Assembly (NCBI GenBank): GCA_038065415.1
Contig: JBBTRA010000005.1
Coordinates: 74,079-109,584 of the forward strand
DNA from: Patescibacteria group bacterium
GTDB lineage: Bacteria; Patescibacteriota; Minisyncoccia; Phycocordibacterales; PALSA-1337
Length of the DNA: 35,506 nt
Reading direction: 5' to 3'
This document shows positions 12,804 through 32,992 of the stretch, in pieces (the first letter of the stretch is position 1; each line of letters opens with the position of its first letter). A program made the translations under genes and the position numbers. Under the pieces are notes generated by a model. That model worked only from the letters and a program-made list of their open reading frames with translations, ran no database searches and was not told the DNA's origin.

Positions 12804-15128
12804 ATGCCCAAGAAACAAAAAACCGCATCAAAGGGGTCGGCTAAAGCCGCCTCTATCCCTACGATTATCAAACGTGACGGAAGGATCGTGCCATTCGATC
12901 TGGAGAAGATTGCAGGCGCTATATGGAAAGGTATGAACACCGTCAAGGAGGGATCTCTCGAGGATGCGCAGATGGTCGCCCAGCAAGTACTTTCCGAACT
13001 TACTCGCATCAAGAGGAAGTTCGCCAATTTCGTGCCGACTGTCGAGGGTGTACAGGATATCGTCGAGGCTGAGCTCATGCGCTCCGACTATGTGAAGACT
13101 GCTAAGCACTATGTGATCTACCGTGAAGAGCGTGCCAAGCTCCGTGCGGTCGGATTTGAGGTTCCTGAGCATGTTCGCAAGCTCGCTACCGAGTCCAAGA
13201 AGTCTTTCCGTACCGCTCTGGGCGAACTCGTGTACTATCGTTCATACTCGCGCTGGATCGAAGCAGAAAATCGTCGCGAAACTTACATCGAGACGGTCAA
13301 TCGATACATGGATTTCATGAAGGAGAATCTTGGCTCCAAGCTCAAGGATGCCGAATACAAAGAAGTTCGTGAGGCTATCATCAAGCAGGAAGCAATGCCT
13401 TCGATGAGACTCTTCCAATTCTCCGGCAAAGCCGCCCGAGTCACCAATGTGTGCGCGTATAACTGCTCGTTCATCGCCCCAGAATCATTCCAGGATCTTG
13501 CTGAGATTATGTACATCTCTATGTGTGGTACTGGTGCTGGATGGGCCGTTGAACCGACCAACGTCGAGAAGTTCCCTCAGATCATCATGCAGACGGGCGA
13601 GAAGCTTTCGACACATGTCATTCCTGATCACAAAGAAGGTTGGTCCGACTCTCTCACTGTCGGTATGAAGGCGTGGGCCGCAGGAAAGGATATCGAGTTT
13701 GATTATTCTCAGATTCGTCCAGAAGGTGCTCGTCTTAAGGTTATGGGAGGTAAGGCGTCAGGTCCCGCTCCGCTTCAGAGGCTCCTCAATTTTACCCGCC
13801 AAGTCATGCTCACTCGCCAGGGCAAGCGTCTGCGCCCGATCGATCTTCACGACATCATCTGTATGATTGGGGATTGCGTAGTTGCTGGTGGGGTCCGTCG
13901 CAGCGCCATGATATCGCTTTCAGATCTGAGTGATGATCATATCCGCGATGCCAAGAAGGGCGCATTCTACATGACTCATCCTCATCGTATGTTGGCCAAC
14001 AACTCAGCTGTATATATCAATAAGCCGACCAATGAAGAGTTTCTCAAAGAATGGATGGCTCTCGTCGAAAGCCGCTCTGGAGAGCGTGGCATATTCAACC
14101 GTGGATCCTTGGCAAAAACCCTTCCCGAGCGCCGTATAAAGGCTCTCAAGGAGTACAAAGGCTACTTCGACTCTACAGGTCAGCATATCGTCGGTCCGAT
14201 CGGTACCAATCCATGTGGCGAGATCATCCTCCAGTCCAAACAGTTCTGCAACCTCTCTGAGATCGTAGCTCGTGCAGAGGATACCGAGAAGACGCTCATG
14301 AAGAAGATACGCATCGCCACCATCCTCGGAACATATCAGTCTACCCTCACCAATTTCCCGTATCTTTCCAAAGAATGGAAAGAGCATTGTGATCGCGAGC
14401 GCCTGCTCGGAGTGTCTATCACTGGACAGTGGGATAGCCCGGCCGTCCGCAAGCCTGAGGTCATGAAGAAGCTCAAGGCAGAAGCTATCCGCGTCAACAA
14501 GGAGTATGCAAAGAGATTTGGTGTCAACGAGTCCACTGCTATCACGTGTGTTAAGCCATCAGGAACTCTGTCTCAGACTGTCGACTGTTCATCAGGTATG
14601 CACCCTCGTCACTCCAAGTTCTACATCCGCCGCATCCGCATTGCAGCAACTGATGCTCTCTTCAGGATGCTCAAGGATCAGGGGGTCCCATATTATCCAG
14701 AAGTAGGACAGACTGAAGAGAATGCGACTACCTATGTACTCGAGTTTCCAGTCAAAGCTCCGTCTGGTTCGATTTTCCGTGACGATCTCACTGCTATCGA
14801 ACAGCTCGAGTACTGGAAGATGGTCAAAGAGAATTTCACGGAGCACAACCCATCTGTGACGATCTCGATCGGAGACAATGAGTGGATCGCTGTGGCAAAC
14901 TGGGTCTACAACAATTGGGACATGGTTGGTGGACTCTCATTCTTGCCACGCGAGAATACCGTTTACAAGCTTGCTCCATATGAGTCTATCGATGAGAAGA
15001 CCTACAAGGAGCTCGCCAAGAAACTTGAACATGTGGATTATTCCAAGATCACTACATATGAGAAACAGAATGAGACTGATCTCAAGAAGGAGTTGGCATG
15101 TGTATCAGGAGTTTGTGAGATTGTGTAG
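12804..15128 (+). CDS. nrdJ: Class II (adenosylcobalamin-dependent) ribonucleotide reductase with N-terminal ATP-cone
   Basis: ATP-cone 'IIKRDGRIVPFD'; 'MPSMR', 'YNCSF', 'GGVRRSA', 'TNPCGEI' and 'CVKPSGT'; C-terminal 'CVSGVCE'. Confidence 0.95.
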   Translation: MPKKQKTASKGSAKAASIPTIIKRDGRIVPFDLEKIAGAIWKGMNTVKEGSLEDAQMVAQQVLSELTRIKRKFANFVPTVEGVQDIVEAELMRSDYVKTAKHYVIYREERAKLRAVGFEVPEHVRKLATESKKSFRTALGELVYYRSYSRWIEAENRRETYIETVNRYMDFMKENLGSKLKDAEYKEVREAIIKQEAMPSMRLFQFSGKAARVTNVCAYNCSFIAPESFQDLAEIMYISMCGTGAGWAVEPTNVEKFPQIIMQTGEKLSTHVIPDHKEGWSDSLTVGMKAWAAGKDIEFDYSQIRPEGARLKVMGGKASGPAPLQRLLNFTRQVMLTRQGKRLRPIDLHDIICMIGDCVVAGGVRRSAMISLSDLSDDHIRDAKKGAFYMTHPHRMLANNSAVYINKPTNEEFLKEWMALVESRSGERGIFNRGSLAKTLPERRIKALKEYKGYFDSTGQHIVGPIGTNPCGEIILQSKQFCNLSEIVARAEDTEKTLMKKIRIATILGTYQSTLTNFPYLSKEWKEHCDRERLLGVSITGQWDSPAVRKPEVMKKLKAEAIRVNKEYAKRFGVNESTAITCVKPSGTLSQTVDCSSGMHPRHSKFYIRRIRIAATDALFRMLKDQGVPYYPEVGQTEENATTYVLEFPVKAPSGSIFRDDLTAIEQLEYWKMVKENFTEHNPSVTISIGDNEWIAVANWVYNNWDMVGGLSFLPRENTVYKLAPYESIDEKTYKELAKKLEHVDYSKITTYEKQNETDLKKELACVSGVCEIV

Positions 15129-15159
15129 TCGAACCTAGCAAAGTATTTTCGTCTAGAAA

Positions 15160-15214
15160 AAAACCGCTCTCTTCCGTTTACGCTAGCTGGCGAACGACGG
15201 AGGAGGGCGGTTTT
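15160..15214. terminator. Long hairpin / bidirectional terminator between nrdJ and the convergent ORF
   Basis: AAAACCGCTCTCTTCCGT ... ACGGAGGAGGGCGGTTTT, an 18-bp stem with G-U pairs. Confidence 0.7.
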
Positions 15215-15228
15215 GCGTTGAAAGAGAT

Positions 15229-15441
15229 TCAGATGTTCGATAGTCCCCAGATTAAGAAAATGACGATACTGACCAGTGCGAGCGAAAAGGCAGTGATCAG
15301 TAAGGTGCGAAGAGCCGTTTTCCAACTTTTCTGTCGGTGCCTGTTGTAGCCGAGAACGCAGTAAAGCAGGAAGCAGCAGATCCCAATCACCAAGAGGGCA
15401 GATGCACTCAAGGGAATCACGTCGGAAGCATTCGAAGTCAT
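15229..15441 (-). CDS. Small two-TM membrane protein (70 aa)
   Basis: MTSNASDVIPLSASALLVIGICCFLLYCVLGY...; promoter TTGACA-17-TATAGT on the minus strand at 15495-15467. Confidence 0.65.
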   Translation of the reverse strand: MTSNASDVIPLSASALLVIGICCFLLYCVLGYNRHRQKSWKTALRTLLITAFSLALVSIVIFLIWGLSNI

Positions 15442-15488
15442 AGAGAGTGCGAGATTTTCTGGTGTCACTATAATAGGAAACAAGGAAC

Positions 15489-15517
15489 TTGTCAAATATA
15501 TTCAATCATGATATAAT
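15489..15517 (+). promoter_or_regulatory. rnpB promoter
   Basis: TTGTCA(15489)-17-TATAAT(15512), with a TG extension. Confidence 0.85.
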
Positions 15518-15524
15518 ATGTGCA

Positions 15525-15872
15525 GCTGTATCAAGCAACCGCGCCTGGTCCATCAGGATCAGGTGAGGAAAGTCCGAACACTGGCATTGTGGGAATGAGC
15601 AATTGCTCCCATAACGCAGACAGGTAGCAGGTAATTCCTGCCAGGGTAATACCCAGAGGTGCGAACAGTGACGCCCGAGCCGAAAGGTAGAGGCCCCTCG
15701 CAAGAGGGTGAATCTCATGGCAACATGAGGGTGCAACGGCAAAATCCTTACTTCAGTGCAAGACCGTGCTCTGCTTCGCCGCAAGGCTTTGCAGAGAGAG
15801 TCGCTCGAGGTGCATGGTGACATGCATTCCAGATAAATGGTTGCGTAAACAGAATTCGGCTTATGGTATGGC
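15525..15872 (+). ncRNA. rnpB: RNase P RNA
   Basis: Conserved GAGGAAAGTCC near the 5' end and ACAGAATTCGGCTTAT near the 3' end; P1 pairing GCTGTATCA/TGGTATGGC; flanking promoter and terminator. Confidence 0.96.
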
Positions 15873-15877
15873 GACAT

Positions 15878-15909
15878 GAAAATGCCCTCGAGAAATCGGG
15901 GGCATTTTC
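15878..15909 (+). terminator. Terminator after rnpB
   Basis: GAAAATGCCCTCGA-gaaa-TCGGGGGCATTTTC. Confidence 0.8.
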
Positions 15910-15992
15910 TCGTCTGAATACACGAATACACAGTTTGATATTTGAGTGAGTATTGATACAATAGAGTTCATTACAAATAAGCGCCCAGCATC

Positions 15993-27617: not shown

Positions 27618-29480
27618 ATGAATAACACATACTCATTCAAGGCCTTTGTCAAACGACTCCTCGGATTGTACCGCCCATTCGGGCGACAATTCACGGTAGT
27701 CTTCATATTCGTCCTCGCCGGAGGGCTGGTGACTGCGACATACCCATTCTTTTATGGGCAGTTGGTCAACATGCTCTCTACTCAACGATACACGTTGTTT
27801 TTCTGGTTCGCGGGTGCCTGGTTCGCGATGCGAGGGGTTAACACCCTCATCGTCATGTTCCGGGAGCACTACGAGCTTCACAAGATAGACTTCAGGTTCC
27901 CCGAGTTCATCGGCCGCATGTCTCTCGAGCATATGTTCAACTTCTCGCTCGGACAACATGTCAGCCAACATTCCGGGATCAAACGCTCTATCCTCAAGGA
28001 TGGAGAAGATTCCATTCACGAGCTTGGCAAGCTGCTCATATACGACATCATTCCTATAATACTCGGTACGGTCATACCCGTGACTATCTTGCTGTGGATC
28101 TCGTGGCCGGTAGGACTTCTTGTCCTCGGTGGACTCGTTACGTATCTGACCTTCCTTGTTAAGATCAACAAACCCTTCGTGCCCAAGTACATACGTTTCA
28201 GGAAACGGGCGCAAGAGTCGAGCAGGGTGACTTCGGATGTACACTCGAACAGAGAACTCGTGATCATCGAGGGGCAAGAGAAGAAAGCTGTGTCCATGGT
28301 CGCAGATGAGCGGAGAGCGGTGAGCGATATTGGTATCAGTCTCTGGCAATGGCATCATCGCGGCTTCTACGCCGGGCAAGGCATCATCCTTCTCTTCAAT
28401 GCGGCAGCGGTATTCCTGACTGGATGGTTCGCCATGAATGGACAGATAGGGTTTGGCCTCTTCGTCTCTCTCGTGTCCTGGATCGGCCAGGCGCTCGGAG
28501 AACTCGGGAGGGTCAGTCGTATCCAACGAGAAGCTGTCAGGCACTATGGATCCATCGTCCGGTACTTCCAAACTCTGGATATCGAGCCGGAAGTTCGTGT
28601 GCCAGAGTCTCCGCTCCTTCTCGCCTCGTACGCCGCGGACATATCGTTCAATGATGTCGTCTTCTCGTACCCTCGCCGGTCAGTGCCGTTATATAAGGCG
28701 GGCATGCTGAATAAGTCAGGCGACGATGAGGAGAAACATGTAGTCTCGGGTCCTGAGGAAAATGGCCAGGCGAAGTTGCCAGCGGTCAATGGAGTCTCGT
28801 TCACTGTGCAAGCCGGCAAGCGTCATGCATTTGTAGGAAAATCAGGTGCATGTAAATCGACGTTGGTATATCTCCTCGTTCGTGCGTGGGATCCACAGGG
28901 CGGATCAATCACTATCCGTGATGTGAACCTCAAGGCACTGGACTTCCGTGAGTTGCGCAGGCATATCGGAATAGTTCCTCAGCAGGTCGAGCTCTTCGAC
29001 ACGACACTCAGGGACAACATACTCTTCGGCATCGATGATCCGTCGAAGGTGTCGGAAGAGGAGTTGCGACGTGCGTGCACGATTGCGCGTGTGGCTGAGT
29101 TTGCTGACAAGCTTGAACACGGTTTGGATACTCAGATCGGTGAAAAGGGAGTCAAACTCTCAGGTGGTCAGCGTCAGCGCATCGGTATTGCACGAGCCCT
29201 CGTCAAAAAGCCAGACATACTGGTATTCGATGAGGCGACGAGCAATCTCGATGCGGAGAATGAGCGGTTGGTACACGATGCAATCGAGGAGGCTTCTCGT
29301 GGAGTCACGACGATATTCATCGCCCACCGCCTCGCTACGGTAGTGAATGCGGACACGATCTTCGTCTTTGAAGAAGGGAAGCTCGTGGGTAGTGGTAAGC
29401 ATGCCGAACTCCTCCAGCAGAACAAAGTCTATCAGAACCTAGTACAAAATCAGCTGATCAGCAATAGATCGATCGAATAG
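27618..29480 (+). CDS. ABC exporter, fused TMD-NBD (MsbA/MdlB-like)
   Basis: N-terminal 6-TM domain; Walker A variant GKSGACKST, Q-loop 'IVPQ', LSGGQRQR, 'LVFDEATSNLD' and 'IAHRL'. Confidence 0.93.
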   Translation: MNNTYSFKAFVKRLLGLYRPFGRQFTVVFIFVLAGGLVTATYPFFYGQLVNMLSTQRYTLFFWFAGAWFAMRGVNTLIVMFREHYELHKIDFRFPEFIGRMSLEHMFNFSLGQHVSQHSGIKRSILKDGEDSIHELGKLLIYDIIPIILGTVIPVTILLWISWPVGLLVLGGLVTYLTFLVKINKPFVPKYIRFRKRAQESSRVTSDVHSNRELVIIEGQEKKAVSMVADERRAVSDIGISLWQWHHRGFYAGQGIILLFNAAAVFLTGWFAMNGQIGFGLFVSLVSWIGQALGELGRVSRIQREAVRHYGSIVRYFQTLDIEPEVRVPESPLLLASYAADISFNDVVFSYPRRSVPLYKAGMLNKSGDDEEKHVVSGPEENGQAKLPAVNGVSFTVQAGKRHAFVGKSGACKSTLVYLLVRAWDPQGGSITIRDVNLKALDFRELRRHIGIVPQQVELFDTTLRDNILFGIDDPSKVSEEELRRACTIARVAEFADKLEHGLDTQIGEKGVKLSGGQRQRIGIARALVKKPDILVFDEATSNLDAENERLVHDAIEEASRGVTTIFIAHRLATVVNADTIFVFEEGKLVGSGKHAELLQQNKVYQNLVQNQLISNRSIE

Positions 29481-29489
29481 ATCGGACGC

Positions 29490-29520
29490 ATCGCACCCTG
29501 ACCTTGGGGTGCGATTTTTT
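29490..29520 (+). terminator. Terminator after the ABC exporter
   Basis: ATCGCACCCTG-acct-TGGGGTGCGAT followed by TTTTT. Confidence 0.8.
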
Positions 29521-29569
29521 GCATCCATATGCACAAAGACCCGCCAGAGCGGGTCGCTGTGCCATAGGG

Positions 29570-29697
29570 TAGGCACTCGTCCATTATAAAGAATCCGAAA
29601 TATATAAGGCGGAATCTAGATCCGGCCCGGAGGCCAAGGATACGTATGTGATTCCTATGAAATTGATTTAAGGATCTTTTGTATAAACGAGAGCCTA
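29570..29697 (-). ncRNA. Putative compact 6S-like RNA
   Basis: Rod fold with closing stem, central AU-rich bubble and terminal stem-loop. Promoter TTGACT-16-CATAAT (29730-29703) places the TSS at the rod 5' end; downstream hairpin at 29531-29562. Confidence 0.6.
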
Positions 29698-29809
29698 TAG
29701 TTATTATGGACTCTTCCTTTTCGAAGTCAATATGTATTTCAGTGAATTTCGGGGGTAAGCTGTAGATAAGCTGGGTATAAGTACGCTTTTTCTGTGGATA
29801 GGTTTTTTT

Positions 29810-32800
29810 CTACAAACTCTTCACTCTTTCCAGCACAAATCCCTTCTCGCCGTTTCGGGTATTCAGGGTAACCTTCACCGCAAGACAAGAGTCCGGGACA
29901 AGGGAATTCTTGAATTCGTTGTATATACGAGGGAATGCAACGGCTTCAACGATGCCACTGAAATCAGCAAGCGTAATGAAGGCCATCGTATCATTCTTCT
30001 TGGTCTGGACGAGGCGTACTTCATTGACGATACAGCCGAATATAGTCTGCCCACCTTCTTTGAGCTCTTCAAGAGCCTTCTTGATAGTCATGCCATTTTT
30101 GGAGATCTGTTCGCGGTAGCGTTCGAGGGGGTGTCCGGAAATATAGAGGCCGAGAAGCTCTTTCTCCCAGGCGAGACGGTCACGAGCGTCGACAGGTGGA
30201 GCAGGGATAAGGCGCAAGCCCGGTACACTCGAGGCATCGGCCATCGCACCAAAAAGGGAATCCTGATCTGCGTGTTGCTTGCTGCTCTCCTTGTTGTACT
30301 CGAGCATGAGGTCGATATTGGCGAGGAGAACACCGCGATCTTCACCGAAGCAATCAAGTGCTCCGGCCTTGATGAGGGATTCGAGGGATTTTTTGTTGAG
30401 ATTTTTGTCCTTCACGCGGTCAAGGAAGTTGATCAGAGAAGTGAATGTTCCTGTTCGAGTGCGTTCGTCAATGATTGCGGTCGAGATGCCTTCGCCGAAA
30501 TTTTTGATGGTCACAAGTCCAAAGCGGATACGGTATGAAGATTCCTCCTTGATGACGGTGAATTGGCTGAAGCTTTCGTTCACATCTGGTGGTAATACCG
30601 GAATACCTATGCGCGTACATTCTGCGATGGTCTCGGCAACTTTCTCGGTATCTCCTTGCTCAGAGGTAAGAACAGCCGATAGATAGATAGCAGGAAAATG
30701 CGCTTTGAGATATGCGGTGATGTAGGCGACGCGACCATATGATACCGAGTGCGCTTTGTTGAATCCGTAGGCTGCGAACGGCTCGATCCACTTCCAGACC
30801 TCTTTTGCCTTCTTCTCAGGCCATTTGCTGTGCTCGATGCACCCTTTGATAAATTTTTCTTTTTGCTGTGCCATCTCTTCGGGAATCTTCTTGCCCACTG
30901 CCTTGCGGAATTTGTCCACTTCGCCCCAGGTATAGCCAGCAATCTTGTGCGCCATCATGAGGAGGTCATCCTGGTAGACGAGAATGCCGTAAGTTTTCTC
31001 AAGGATCTGTTCGAGCATTGGATCGAGATACTTGATGAGCGATCTATCATGTTTCCTGGCGATATAGTCCGGGATGAATCCAATCGGGCCAGGGCGATAG
31101 AGCGCCACCATAGCGTTGATGTCGTGGATGGTGGTCGGTTTGAGATCCTTGAGGAACCTAGTCATACCGTCGCCGTTGAGCTGGAATGTGTCAGCAGTTT
31201 CGCCGCGCGCCAACATTTCGAATGTTGCTGTATCTGTGACGGGTATGTTGTCTGGGTCGATATCGACACCCGCAATCTTTTTTATCTTGTCTACCGTATC
31301 AGCGATGATGGTGAGGTTCTTGAGTCCCAGGAAGTCGAACTTGAGCAAACCCGCCTCTTCGATGGAGTACATGTCGTATTGGGAGATGACCTTACCCTCG
31401 CCCTTGGGGTCGAACTGGAGCGGCGTGAAGTCGGTGAGGGCTGTCGGAGATATGACCACGCCAGCGGCATGGACGCCGATGTGTCGTGCACAGCCTTCAA
31501 TCTTACGTGCCATGTCGACGATACGGCGCGTATCTGCATCGGACATGTAGAGTTCTTTGAGCTCGGGAACTTCGTCGAGCGCACGCTCGATAGTCATGGG
31601 GAATCCCTGTGCGCCCATCGGGATGAGCTTGGAAATGCGGTCACCGACTTCATAGCCAAAGCCCATGGCACGAGCCACATCGCGCACGGATCCGCGAGCA
31701 GCCATAGTTCCGAAGGTTCCGATCTGTGCCACCTTGTCAGCACCGTACTTCTTGCGGACATAGTCGATGACTTCGTCGCGACGGTTATCAGCATAGTCCA
31801 TATCGATATCGGGAGCAGATGGACGGTCAGGATTCAAGAAGCGCTCGAACGGGATTTCATAGACGATAGGGTTAATATTGGTGATACCAGCTAGATATGT
31901 GACCATGGATCCAGAGACTGATCCGCGGATGTTGGAGAGGATACCGTTCTCGCGGGCGAAGCGGAGCATGTCGGCCACTACCAGGAAGTATGGCGAGTAC
32001 CCCTTATCTTTGATCACTTTGAGCTCATATTCGGCGCGTGCGGTAAGTTCGGGAGTCTGTCCGATTCCGCGACGCTCGAATCCTGCGAAGACGATGCGTC
32101 GTAACTCTTCGTCCGGGGTGAGACCGCTCTCTACTTTGAGTGCAGGGAAGACCCACTTGCCGAGCTCGATAGTCAGATTGCACGCATCGACAATCTTGGT
32201 GGTGTTCTCGAGAGCTTCAGGCAGATCGCGGAAGAGCTCTTCTGCGCGTTCGGTGGAAATGAATGAAAAGTCATCTTCGTCACTATCAGATATTTTATCG
32301 GAGGCGTCACTATGAGAATTCACGCGGACGAGGGTTTCGCGGGCGAAGCGGTCCTCTGGTTTCAGATAGTAGACATCATGTGCGGCCATGACGGAGATAT
32401 TCTGGCTCTTGGCAAAATTCAAGAGGGTTTTCATATTTGTCTCATGACCGTCGATCTCGGGATGCCGGGTGATCTCTATGTAGAGACGATCGTCAAAAAC
32501 TTTCTTGTAGAAAGCCGCAACTTCTTTGGCTTTGTCCTGATTTCTGCTATTGAGGGATTGGGCGATTTCACCTGAGAATGACGGGGAGATAGCGATGAGT
32601 CCTTCATTGTGGAGCTCGAGCAACTCACGATCGATGCGGGGCTTGTAGTAAAAACCTTCAAGGTGAGATTTGGTGACAAGCTGAACAAGGTTCTTGTACC
32701 CAGTTTCATTCATGGCAAGAAGTACCAGTCGGCTCCGACGGTTGTCGACGCCCGCTTGCATGTCCTTCCTCGATCGTACTGCCACGAAGAAATCAACCCC

Positions 32801-32992
32801 GATAATCGGTTTTATGCCTTTGGCCTTACATGCTTTGTAGAATTCGATGGCACCGTAGAGGTTACCGTTGTCAGTGAGAGCGAGCGCCTCCATATTGAGT
32901 TTCTTGGCCTCGCCGACGAGGTCGTCTATCTTGGGGAGTGCCGCGAGGAGGGAGTAGTGGGAGTGGGAGTGGAGGTGGGCAAAGCGGGACAT
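29810..32992 (-). CDS. dnaE: DNA polymerase III alpha subunit
   Basis: PHP 'HLHSHSHYS'; 'FERFLNPDRPSAPDIDMD', 'HAAGVVI', 'KFDFLGL' and 'YGFNKAHS'; C-terminal OB fold. Confidence 0.98.
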   Translation of the reverse strand: MSRFAHLHSHSHYSLLAALPKIDDLVGEAKKLNMEALALTDNGNLYGAIEFYKACKAKGIKPIIGVDFFVAVRSRKDMQAGVDNRRSRLVLLAMNETGYKNLVQLVTKSHLEGFYYKPRIDRELLELHNEGLIAISPSFSGEIAQSLNSRNQDKAKEVAAFYKKVFDDRLYIEITRHPEIDGHETNMKTLLNFAKSQNISVMAAHDVYYLKPEDRFARETLVRVNSHSDASDKISDSDEDDFSFISTERAEELFRDLPEALENTTKIVDACNLTIELGKWVFPALKVESGLTPDEELRRIVFAGFERRGIGQTPELTARAEYELKVIKDKGYSPYFLVVADMLRFARENGILSNIRGSVSGSMVTYLAGITNINPIVYEIPFERFLNPDRPSAPDIDMDYADNRRDEVIDYVRKKYGADKVAQIGTFGTMAARGSVRDVARAMGFGYEVGDRISKLIPMGAQGFPMTIERALDEVPELKELYMSDADTRRIVDMARKIEGCARHIGVHAAGVVISPTALTDFTPLQFDPKGEGKVISQYDMYSIEEAGLLKFDFLGLKNLTIIADTVDKIKKIAGVDIDPDNIPVTDTATFEMLARGETADTFQLNGDGMTRFLKDLKPTTIHDINAMVALYRPGPIGFIPDYIARKHDRSLIKYLDPMLEQILEKTYGILVYQDDLLMMAHKIAGYTWGEVDKFRKAVGKKIPEEMAQQKEKFIKGCIEHSKWPEKKAKEVWKWIEPFAAYGFNKAHSVSYGRVAYITAYLKAHFPAIYLSAVLTSEQGDTEKVAETIAECTRIGIPVLPPDVNESFSQFTVIKEESSYRIRFGLVTIKNFGEGISTAIIDERTRTGTFTSLINFLDRVKDKNLNKKSLESLIKAGALDCFGEDRGVLLANIDLMLEYNKESSKQHADQDSLFGAMADASSVPGLRLIPAPPVDARDRLAWEKELLGLYISGHPLERYREQISKNGMTIKKALEELKEGGQTIFGCIVNEVRLVQTKKNDTMAFITLADFSGIVEAVAFPRIYNEFKNSLVPDSCLAVKVTLNTRNGEKGFVLERVKSL

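Follow-up and report, generated by a model that had tools for sequence, protein, structure and literature searches.

The window analysed here is a stretch of 35,506 nucleotides from the 0.79-Mb genome (G000) of a tiny groundwater bacterium, and positions below refer to it unless a contig is named. The RNA studied, designated type B, is encoded on its minus strand in a spacer of 329 nt between dnaE, a 1060-aa open reading frame (ORF) with DNA_pol3_alpha, PHP and finger domains, and a convergent ABC-transporter gene. The features of the locus are listed below in the direction of type B transcription.

29810-32992, minus strand: dnaE, on the same strand as type B, stop codon at 29812-29810
29761-29801, minus strand: array of three 9-mers resembling the DnaA box, all oriented alike and situated between the stop codon of dnaE and the promoter: CTATCCACA (29801-29793), TTATACCCA (29780-29772) and TTATCTACA (29769-29761)
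29703-29730, minus strand: sigma-70-type promoter with 10 of 12 matches, consisting of -35 TTGACT (29730-29725), a 16-nt spacer and -10 CATAAT (29708-29703)
29531-29696, minus strand: type B RNA, predicted to start at the A at 29696 and to stop where the conserved 3' hairpin ends
29672-29696, minus strand: 5' strand of the closing stem (putatively downstream DNA-like), ending in the conserved GAUCC and pairing with 29596-29571
29656-29671, minus strand: 5' strand of the central bubble, UUAAAUCAAUUUCAUA, 16 nt, the presumed template for product RNA
29611-29655, minus strand: upper arm (putatively upstream DNA-like), with GGAAUC/GAUUCC, AUCC/GGAU and GGCC-UCCG-GGCC
29597-29610, minus strand: 3' strand of the central bubble, GCCUUAUAUAUUUC, 14 nt, genus consensus (C)CACYU-UAnAU-UUUY
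29571-29596, minus strand: 3' strand of the closing stem, GGAUUC...GCCU, from the MFE structure and covariation
29563-29570, minus strand: conserved single-stranded tail, ACCCUAUG, corresponding to invariant alignment columns
29531-29562, minus strand: 3' hairpin, GCACAGCGACCCGC-UCUG-GCGGGUCUUUGUGC, from the MFE structure and covariation, with no U-run behind it
27618-29480, convergent on type B: ABC-transporter gene, with its own terminator at 29490-29515

The promoter TTGACT-16-CATAAT, which the initial annotation had placed at 29730-29703 of the minus strand, is present and is the sole sigma-70-like site that a promoter scan found within 29300-29950. The A at 29696 lies 7 nt past its -10 hexamer, and among type B homologues TTGAC-N17-TAnAAT-like hexamers stand at a constant distance from a conserved 5' AGG. 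On the opposite side of the gene, the ABC-transporter terminator (29490-29515, plus strand) is a strong hairpin of 11 pairs with a T-run. It lies only about 15 nt beyond the type B 3' hairpin and could also block read-through out of the type B gene. Nine sequencing runs from three studies contain the stretch, and those listed are DNA contigs with no RNA run among them.

Folding of 29700-29531 with RNAfold gave -63.3 kcal/mol, compared with -39.8 ± 4 kcal/mol for 200 dinucleotide shuffles (z = -5.88; none of the 200 was as good). The MFE structure consists of a 127-nt rod (29696-29570), seven unpaired nucleotides (CCCUAUG) and a 32-nt hairpin (29562-29531). It contains every pairing originally listed, namely the closing stem, GGAAUC/GAUUCC (29655-29650 with 29616-29611), AUCC/GGAU, GGCC-UCCG-GGCC and the downstream hairpin, the last of which proved to be longer than claimed, extending from GCACAG to CUUUGUGC. 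The proposed bubble is present as an internal loop, but the MFE structure closes part of it with four A-U pairs (AAAU/AUUU). These positions (helix 5) show almost no variation in 63 homologues, so covariation neither supports nor excludes pairing there. In the 3' bubble strand, a UAnAnU motif resembling a -10 hexamer was considered as evidence and rejected: frequent though it is, variants such as UUGCAU and UUGCCU show that it is not invariant.

The length of about 130 nt estimated at first is too short, since the conserved unit comprises about 166 nt (29696-29531) and includes the CCCUAUGG tail and the 3' hairpin. These two elements are the most conserved portion of the gene; GCCUACCCUAUGGCA of the tail is invariant in the first nine homologues, the covarying 3' hairpin has the genus core CCCGC-UUCG-GCGGG, and the sequence at the apex of the upper arm differs between relatives. 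The hairpin, having no U-run, was not called by the terminator scan. By eye, no more than about 4 bp (CCUA/UAGG) are conserved between the tail and either the 5' end of the bubble or the 5' end of the RNA; both partners are invariant, and covariation therefore cannot test pairing of the tail.

Several other features of the window and genome relate to RNA or transcription. RNase P RNA (RF00010) lies at 15523-15878 of the plus strand (G000:C5:89601-89956) and scores 85.2 bits, below the RF00010 gathering score of 100, which is why the scan of the window at gathering level did not list it. Two minus-strand ORFs that overlap or adjoin it, 15038-15505 and 15506-15961, are probably not genes. Both RNase P RNA and tmRNA of the genome were found at places other than type B. 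A Sigma70_r2 match (G000:C5:74828-75028) falls in a 188-aa ORF at 450-1016 of the minus strand, and this is one of four sigma-70-family genes in the 0.79-Mb genome, with frames of 188, 415, 315 and at least 139 aa, the 415-aa frame encoding the primary sigma.

Conservation of the type B gene

A blastn search of 60 relatives matched the RNA over its full length in three genomes of the genus; in a further six the match was confined to the 3' part, and the flanks of these six matches revealed that the whole type B RNA and its promoter are conserved there too. A covariance model made from three type B copies (R1) was used to align nine. In this alignment 92% of the cells are paired and double-sided changes are found at 32 of 56 pairs, a result equalled by none of 500 shuffles. 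A second type B covariance model (R2) has exactly one strong match in each of 64 of the 93 genus genomes, or 43 of the 59 high-quality ones, and finds a single copy (150 bits, E = 3.8e-35) in the genome studied. Since 29 of the 93 genomes lack it, type B is dispensable.

In 63 aligned copies, 89% of the cells are paired, compared with 39-48% when the partners are slid by 1-3 columns. Double-sided changes occur at 52 of the 56 pairs, and no shuffle out of 500 reached any of five measures. All of helices 1-4 of alignment A5, which form the closing stem, have double-sided changes, as do 13 of the 14 pairs in helices 6 and 7 (upper arm) and 12 of the 13 in helices 8 and 9 (3' hairpin), where 96-99% of the cells are paired. 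The motif CCUUAA in the 5' bubble strand is nearly invariant among type B copies. The homologue search and covariation check proposed at the outset have thus identified a conserved RNA gene, on the strength of the 64 genomes that carry it and the changes at 52 pairs, and covariation rules out a chance hairpin or terminator region.

The position directly behind dnaE could in principle point to a cis element or 3' untranslated region of that gene. The initial description of the RNA as lying downstream of dnaE is correct for the window but does not hold as a general rule: dnaE stands upstream of type B in only 11 of the 31 homologous loci examined, and the neighbouring genes vary. The promoter of type B is its own and is itself conserved. 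Together with the conserved fold and the changing neighbours it indicates a free-standing gene, not a dnaE 3' UTR.

No SRP RNA is detectable in the genome, so an unrecognised SRP (4.5S) RNA was also a conceivable identity. The families RF00169 and RF01854 gave no match in the genome, nor in any of 31 relatives. The genome also yielded no M domain (PF02978), no SRP54-type GTPase (PF00448; Ffh or FtsY) and, in a six-frame motif scan, no frame with the SRP GTPase G1 motif followed by the G3 motif. PF00448 was found in none of 41 relatives and none of 61 genomes sampled across the phylum, whereas 14 of 14 controls were positive. The absence of SRP subunits from many CPR bacteria is mentioned in an earlier paper (PMC8080830) and is therefore already known, although its breadth here is striking. 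As for the RNA itself, the apex is the conserved part of SRP RNA, yet it is the variable part of type B. Neither a domain IV apex nor Ffh was found, and the lack of a protein partner together with the variable apex excludes SRP RNA. Taken as a group, an SRP RNA, a dnaE element and a chance structure are extremely improbable as explanations of the locus.

Relationship to 6S RNA and the more canonical 6S gene

A search of the window against Rfam (4227 families) at gathering score returned three tRNAs and nothing else, and at E ≤ 10 nothing relevant was found in 29400-29850. The 6S RNA family, RF00013, has no match in the window at its gathering score (46.4 bits) and none at E ≤ 10 either in 29400-29850 or in the whole genome, which bears out the expectation that standard models may miss this RNA. 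The gathering score is a detection criterion and not a biological one, and a second RNA of the same genome, the type A 6S RNA described below, fails it too. Across a sample of 151 genomes of the phylum RF00013 had matches in 22, of which 7 passed the cut-off; all the RNAs matched are compact, with 142-197 nt.

In its architecture type B has a closing stem, a large bubble and an upper stem-loop, with covariation, as proposed when it was first likened to 6S RNA. The bubble and its surroundings compare with the RF00013 consensus as follows.

Helix below the bubble, 5' strand: RF00013 uGAgCC; type B (genus) aGAUCC
5' bubble strand: RF00013 16 unpaired nt; type B median 16, range 14-17 (63 copies)
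Inner stem: RF00013 GGG-a-gcccuc...gagggc-a-CCC; type B AGG-stem...stem-CC
3' bubble strand: RF00013 13 unpaired nt, starting ACCU; type B median 13, range 12-16, starting ACYU
Helix below the bubble, 3' strand: RF00013 GGuUCa; type B GGAaUC

The nucleotides flanking the bubble accordingly read GAgCC...GGG-stem...CCCACCU...GGuUC in RF00013 and GAUCC...AGG-stem...CCACYU...GGAAUC in type B, so that the likeness extends to both bubble sizes and flanks. The copy in the window has bubble strands of 16 nt (5') and 14 nt (3'), the latter starting with GCCU, not ACCU. The phylum's 6S RNAs also have a CCUGG..CCAGG-type hairpin (CCCACCUgg..CaGG) in the 3' bubble strand. This small hairpin is not part of the RF00013 consensus structure, and it is not found in type B, in which the strand reads CCACYU-UAnAU-UUUYGG.

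A relaxed RF00013 search of 40 genus genomes gave weak matches to the core of the model (positions of about 39-148; the best with 23.4 bits, E = 0.0025). These sit off the R2 loci, including in the type B carriers G005, G009 and G023, and belong to the type A RNA. Type A has a promoter followed by ACAGGYU, then AAAUCC, the bubble, a GGGAG-stem and the apex GCACCUUGGUGU; its 3' half comprises CACCCACCU(R)G with the small 3'-bubble hairpin, the closing stem and a U-tailed terminator. The copy of the genome studied was found on contig C6 by pattern search (G000:C6:51065-51207, plus strand; locus L137:1566-1709). It possesses a TTGCAC-N17-TACAAT promoter, a GGGAG..CACCCACCUAG core with the 3'-bubble hairpin and a U-tailed terminator, and RF00013 misses it at E ≤ 10. 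Two side features of the type A loci are a conserved ATGTC(R)YAACTAC about 10 nt before the -35 hexamer (L137, L139, L140, L143, L147 and L148) and a conserved ...LDGIL at the end of the product of the preceding gene.

A covariance model built from eight type A sequences only (R3) finds one copy in 86 of the 93 genus genomes and in 58 of the 59 high-quality ones, the copy of the genome studied having E = 4e-22. Run with filters off, it also agrees in place and strand with 18 of the 20 6S loci that RF00013 recognises in the phylum (E = 4.7e-7 to 0.55), which makes type A the ordinary 6S RNA of this lineage. Both types are present in 58 of the 93 genomes, type A alone in 28, type B alone in 6 and neither in 1. 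The initial annotation had named a canonical 6S gene elsewhere, coupled with failure of this RNA to bind RNA polymerase, as evidence against its reading. Such a gene does exist, on contig C6, and type B is consequently a second, divergent 6S-type gene and not the main one.

The two types, and the 6S RNAs accepted by RF00013, were further compared by covariance models. R2 matches the type A 6S of G131, a member of another family, with a per-genome E of 2e-7. With default filters it misses all 20 of the phylum's RF00013-positive 6S loci. With filters off it matches 7 of the 20 at the right place and strand (E = 0.018-3.8), among 38 matches at E ≤ 10 of which 31 lie elsewhere, the best one (L088:1903-1996) being off target. 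In the reciprocal search R3, which contains no type B sequences, was run on 30 type B loci and gave 13 matches at E ≤ 10. The seven best of these and one more fall on the type B RNA, on the right strand (E = 0.19-7.4); at this threshold 22 of the 30 type B loci, the window copy (L034) among them, are unmatched. Kinship of type B with accepted 6S RNA is detectable at the level of sequence models, the links being individually weak yet consistent.

Outside the genus, type B-like RNAs were found as one copy in G182 and as two tandem copies beside a type A gene in G141. In the latter, which belongs to another family of the order, the tandem copies lie at L071:1268-1418 and L071:1501-1662 (R2, E = 4e-8 and 1.6e-5), and each has its own 3' hairpin. 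The type A-like 6S of G141 is at C1:289692-289876 (RF00013, 20 bits), which brings the 6S-type genes of this roughly 0.7-Mb genome to three.

The weakness of the cross-family matches could be taken to mean that the likeness to 6S RNA is convergent. Type B would then act in trans, by base pairing or as a sponge, its stable rod exposing the conserved loops CCUUAA and CCACCU to RNA or protein targets. The conserved unpaired motifs could indeed serve as seed regions. Against this, the RF00013 consensus shares these motifs together with their order, spacing and flanking helices, the top seven R3 matches are all on type B, and R2 finds a type A 6S at 2e-7. Convergence on all these 6S features is unlikely, and a base-pairing or sponge function is quite improbable.

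Possible function and DnaA-box-like array

The mechanism of 6S RNA, which occupies the RNA polymerase holoenzyme as an open-promoter mimic, is established for Escherichia coli and Bacillus subtilis. On balance type B is probably, though by no means certainly, a second, divergent 6S-type RNA, a paralogue of type A, that acts in the same manner. By analogy, the RNA, presumably expressed from its own promoter, would enter the DNA channel of an RNA polymerase holoenzyme of the sigma-70 family and dock there as a rod. The closing stem would take the place of the downstream DNA, the 16/14-nt bubble that of the melted region and the upper arm that of the upstream DNA, and the 5' bubble strand with the adjoining GAUCC/GGAGAAGAUCC stretch may template short product RNAs. 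Sequestration of RNA polymerase by type B we infer from the same analogy. The four sigma-70-family genes of the organism mean that two 6S-type RNAs could serve different holoenzymes or conditions, in the way reported for the pair of Bacillus paralogues (PMC3923129, PMC4793215). Because type B has no 3'-bubble hairpin and has the conserved CCCUAUGG tail with its hairpin, its structure suggests a mode of release or turnover other than that of type A.

A rod of this size is compatible with such a function. Truncation of 6S-1 RNA to the bubble plus two short arms is reported to leave the 6S cycle operating in vitro (PMC8876501), and this activity, together with the 142-197 nt of the phylum's RF00013 matches, makes compact 6S forms plausible. 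Several points count against the 6S-paralogue reading besides the missing RF00013 match, the individually weak cross-family matches, the absence from 29 genomes and the lack of the 3'-bubble hairpin. The function of 6S RNA is not vacant in this genome, as a more canonical 6S is already there; the bubble may be partly closed by about two to four A-U pairs; and the 3' tail and hairpin are strongly conserved, which is without counterpart in known 6S RNA and could indicate another partner.

The last point leads to an explanation in which a 6S-derived RNA has kept the ancestral rod and changed its partner or job, working through the single-stranded CCCUAUGG tail and the 3' hairpin. Instead of sequestering holoenzyme, it might have core polymerase as its partner, as Ms1 does, or another protein, or it might act in a DnaA/replication circuit. 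Such a change would fit the fact that the tail and hairpin are the most conserved part and were alone matched by blastn in six further genomes, that the hairpin is a non-canonical terminator lacking a U-run and uncalled by the scan, and that the 3'-bubble release hairpin has been lost. Of the 64 genomes with type B, 58 also carry type A, a redundancy that would favour a new function, and the DnaA-box array described below is specific to type B. The bubble lengths (16/13) and flanks are, however, held as tightly as in bona fide 6S RNA, which is hard to explain unless a polymerase-fitting core is under selection, and no candidate partner gene is linked to type B, whose neighbours vary. We hold a changed partner to be rather unlikely.

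The region upstream of the promoter was scored for 9-mers similar to TTATCCACA, which we take to be the DnaA-box consensus. In 62 type B loci, boxes with at most one mismatch number 0.81 per 100-nt upstream region, compared with 0.021 in shuffles. At least one box is present at 41 of the 62 loci, and all are on the strand of the RNA at -100 to -50. The upstream regions of type A 6S, RNase P RNA and tmRNA contain no such array. In the genome studied the boxes are degenerate, and type B is one of 14 loci with at least three boxes (at most two mismatches) in 70 nt.

The densest box clusters of this genome flank dnaA on both sides (G000:C7:78000-79700), with five boxes within 90 nt at about 78113, which makes the motif credible as the DnaA box of this organism. 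The dnaA gene itself is a 452-aa frame on the minus strand (C7:78684-79169 matched), and the region around it is the probable replication origin. The type B locus was also considered as oriC and rejected: GC skew is positive on both sides, the flanking genes converge and the densest boxes are at dnaA on C7.

The orientation of the array and its position directly upstream of the -35 hexamer suggest that transcription of type B is tuned by DnaA. A more far-reaching proposal is that DnaA bound to the boxes at -100 to -50 sets the level of a polymerase-occupying RNA and so couples replication initiation to global transcription, with a different route of release or decay owing to the lost hairpin and the CCCUAUGG tail. 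We regard this full scheme as unlikely, but if the box array is functional it would tie polymerase sequestration to the control of replication in a way not described before.

6S RNA and 6S paralogue pairs are already known. What is new is a 6S-type family undetected by public models, with a distinct 3' module and a DnaA-box array. Full-text searches, confined to literature outside subscription journals, turned up no treatment of 6S RNA in CPR/Patescibacteria and none that named 6S RNA together with the DnaA box; in the one paper they found with both '6S RNA' and 'Patescibacteria' the former denotes SRP RNA. Few RNAs regulate transcription globally; 6S RNA is among them, and regulators of this kind tend to be lost from small genomes. 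Here a 0.79-Mb genome has two 6S-type genes, both invisible to Rfam, and standard annotation therefore under-reports 6S RNA in this huge, uncultured branch of bacteria. Type B is in addition a natural experiment on which parts of 6S RNA are needed, having kept the bubble and its flanks, lost the 3'-bubble hairpin and gained a 3' module.

Comparison with known systems

Type B and 6S/SsrS RNA (RF00013) have in common the closing stem, the bubble (16 and 13-14 nt) and the upper stem-loop, the flanks GAnCC / (A/G)GG-stem / CC-ACCU / GGnUC, a sigma-70-type promoter and the presence of one copy per genome. Type B differs in scoring below every RF00013 threshold tried, in lacking the small 3'-bubble hairpin, and in its extra CCCUAUGG tail and 32-nt hairpin without a U-run. 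It also has an oriented DnaA-box-like array upstream and exists alongside a more canonical 6S.

Type A, the nearest relative, also starts with AGG 6-7 nt past a TAnAAT hexamer and has the same core layout and a similar rod length. The GGGAG..CACCCACCU(R)G motif, the 3'-bubble hairpin, the conserved GCACCUUGGUGU apex and the U-tailed terminator distinguish type A from type B. In the type A RNA of G131, the hairpin at the position of the type B 3' hairpin bears a U-tail.

Both Bacillus 6S RNAs are recognised by standard models, and we know of no DnaA-box array or conserved 3' tail associated with them. The 6S-1 (bsrA) and 6S-2 (bsrB) RNAs of B. subtilis are described as paralogues that share an architecture and differ in details (PMC3923129, PMC4793215), and as such offer a precedent for paralogues with partly different behaviour. 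B. subtilis belongs to an unrelated lineage and has a much larger genome than the organism studied here.

Ms1 RNA is about 300 nt long and binds the core enzyme. It is reported from actinobacteria as a 6S-like rod associated with RNA polymerase (PMC11077062) and, compared with type B by description, illustrates that 6S-like RNAs can partner a different form of the enzyme.
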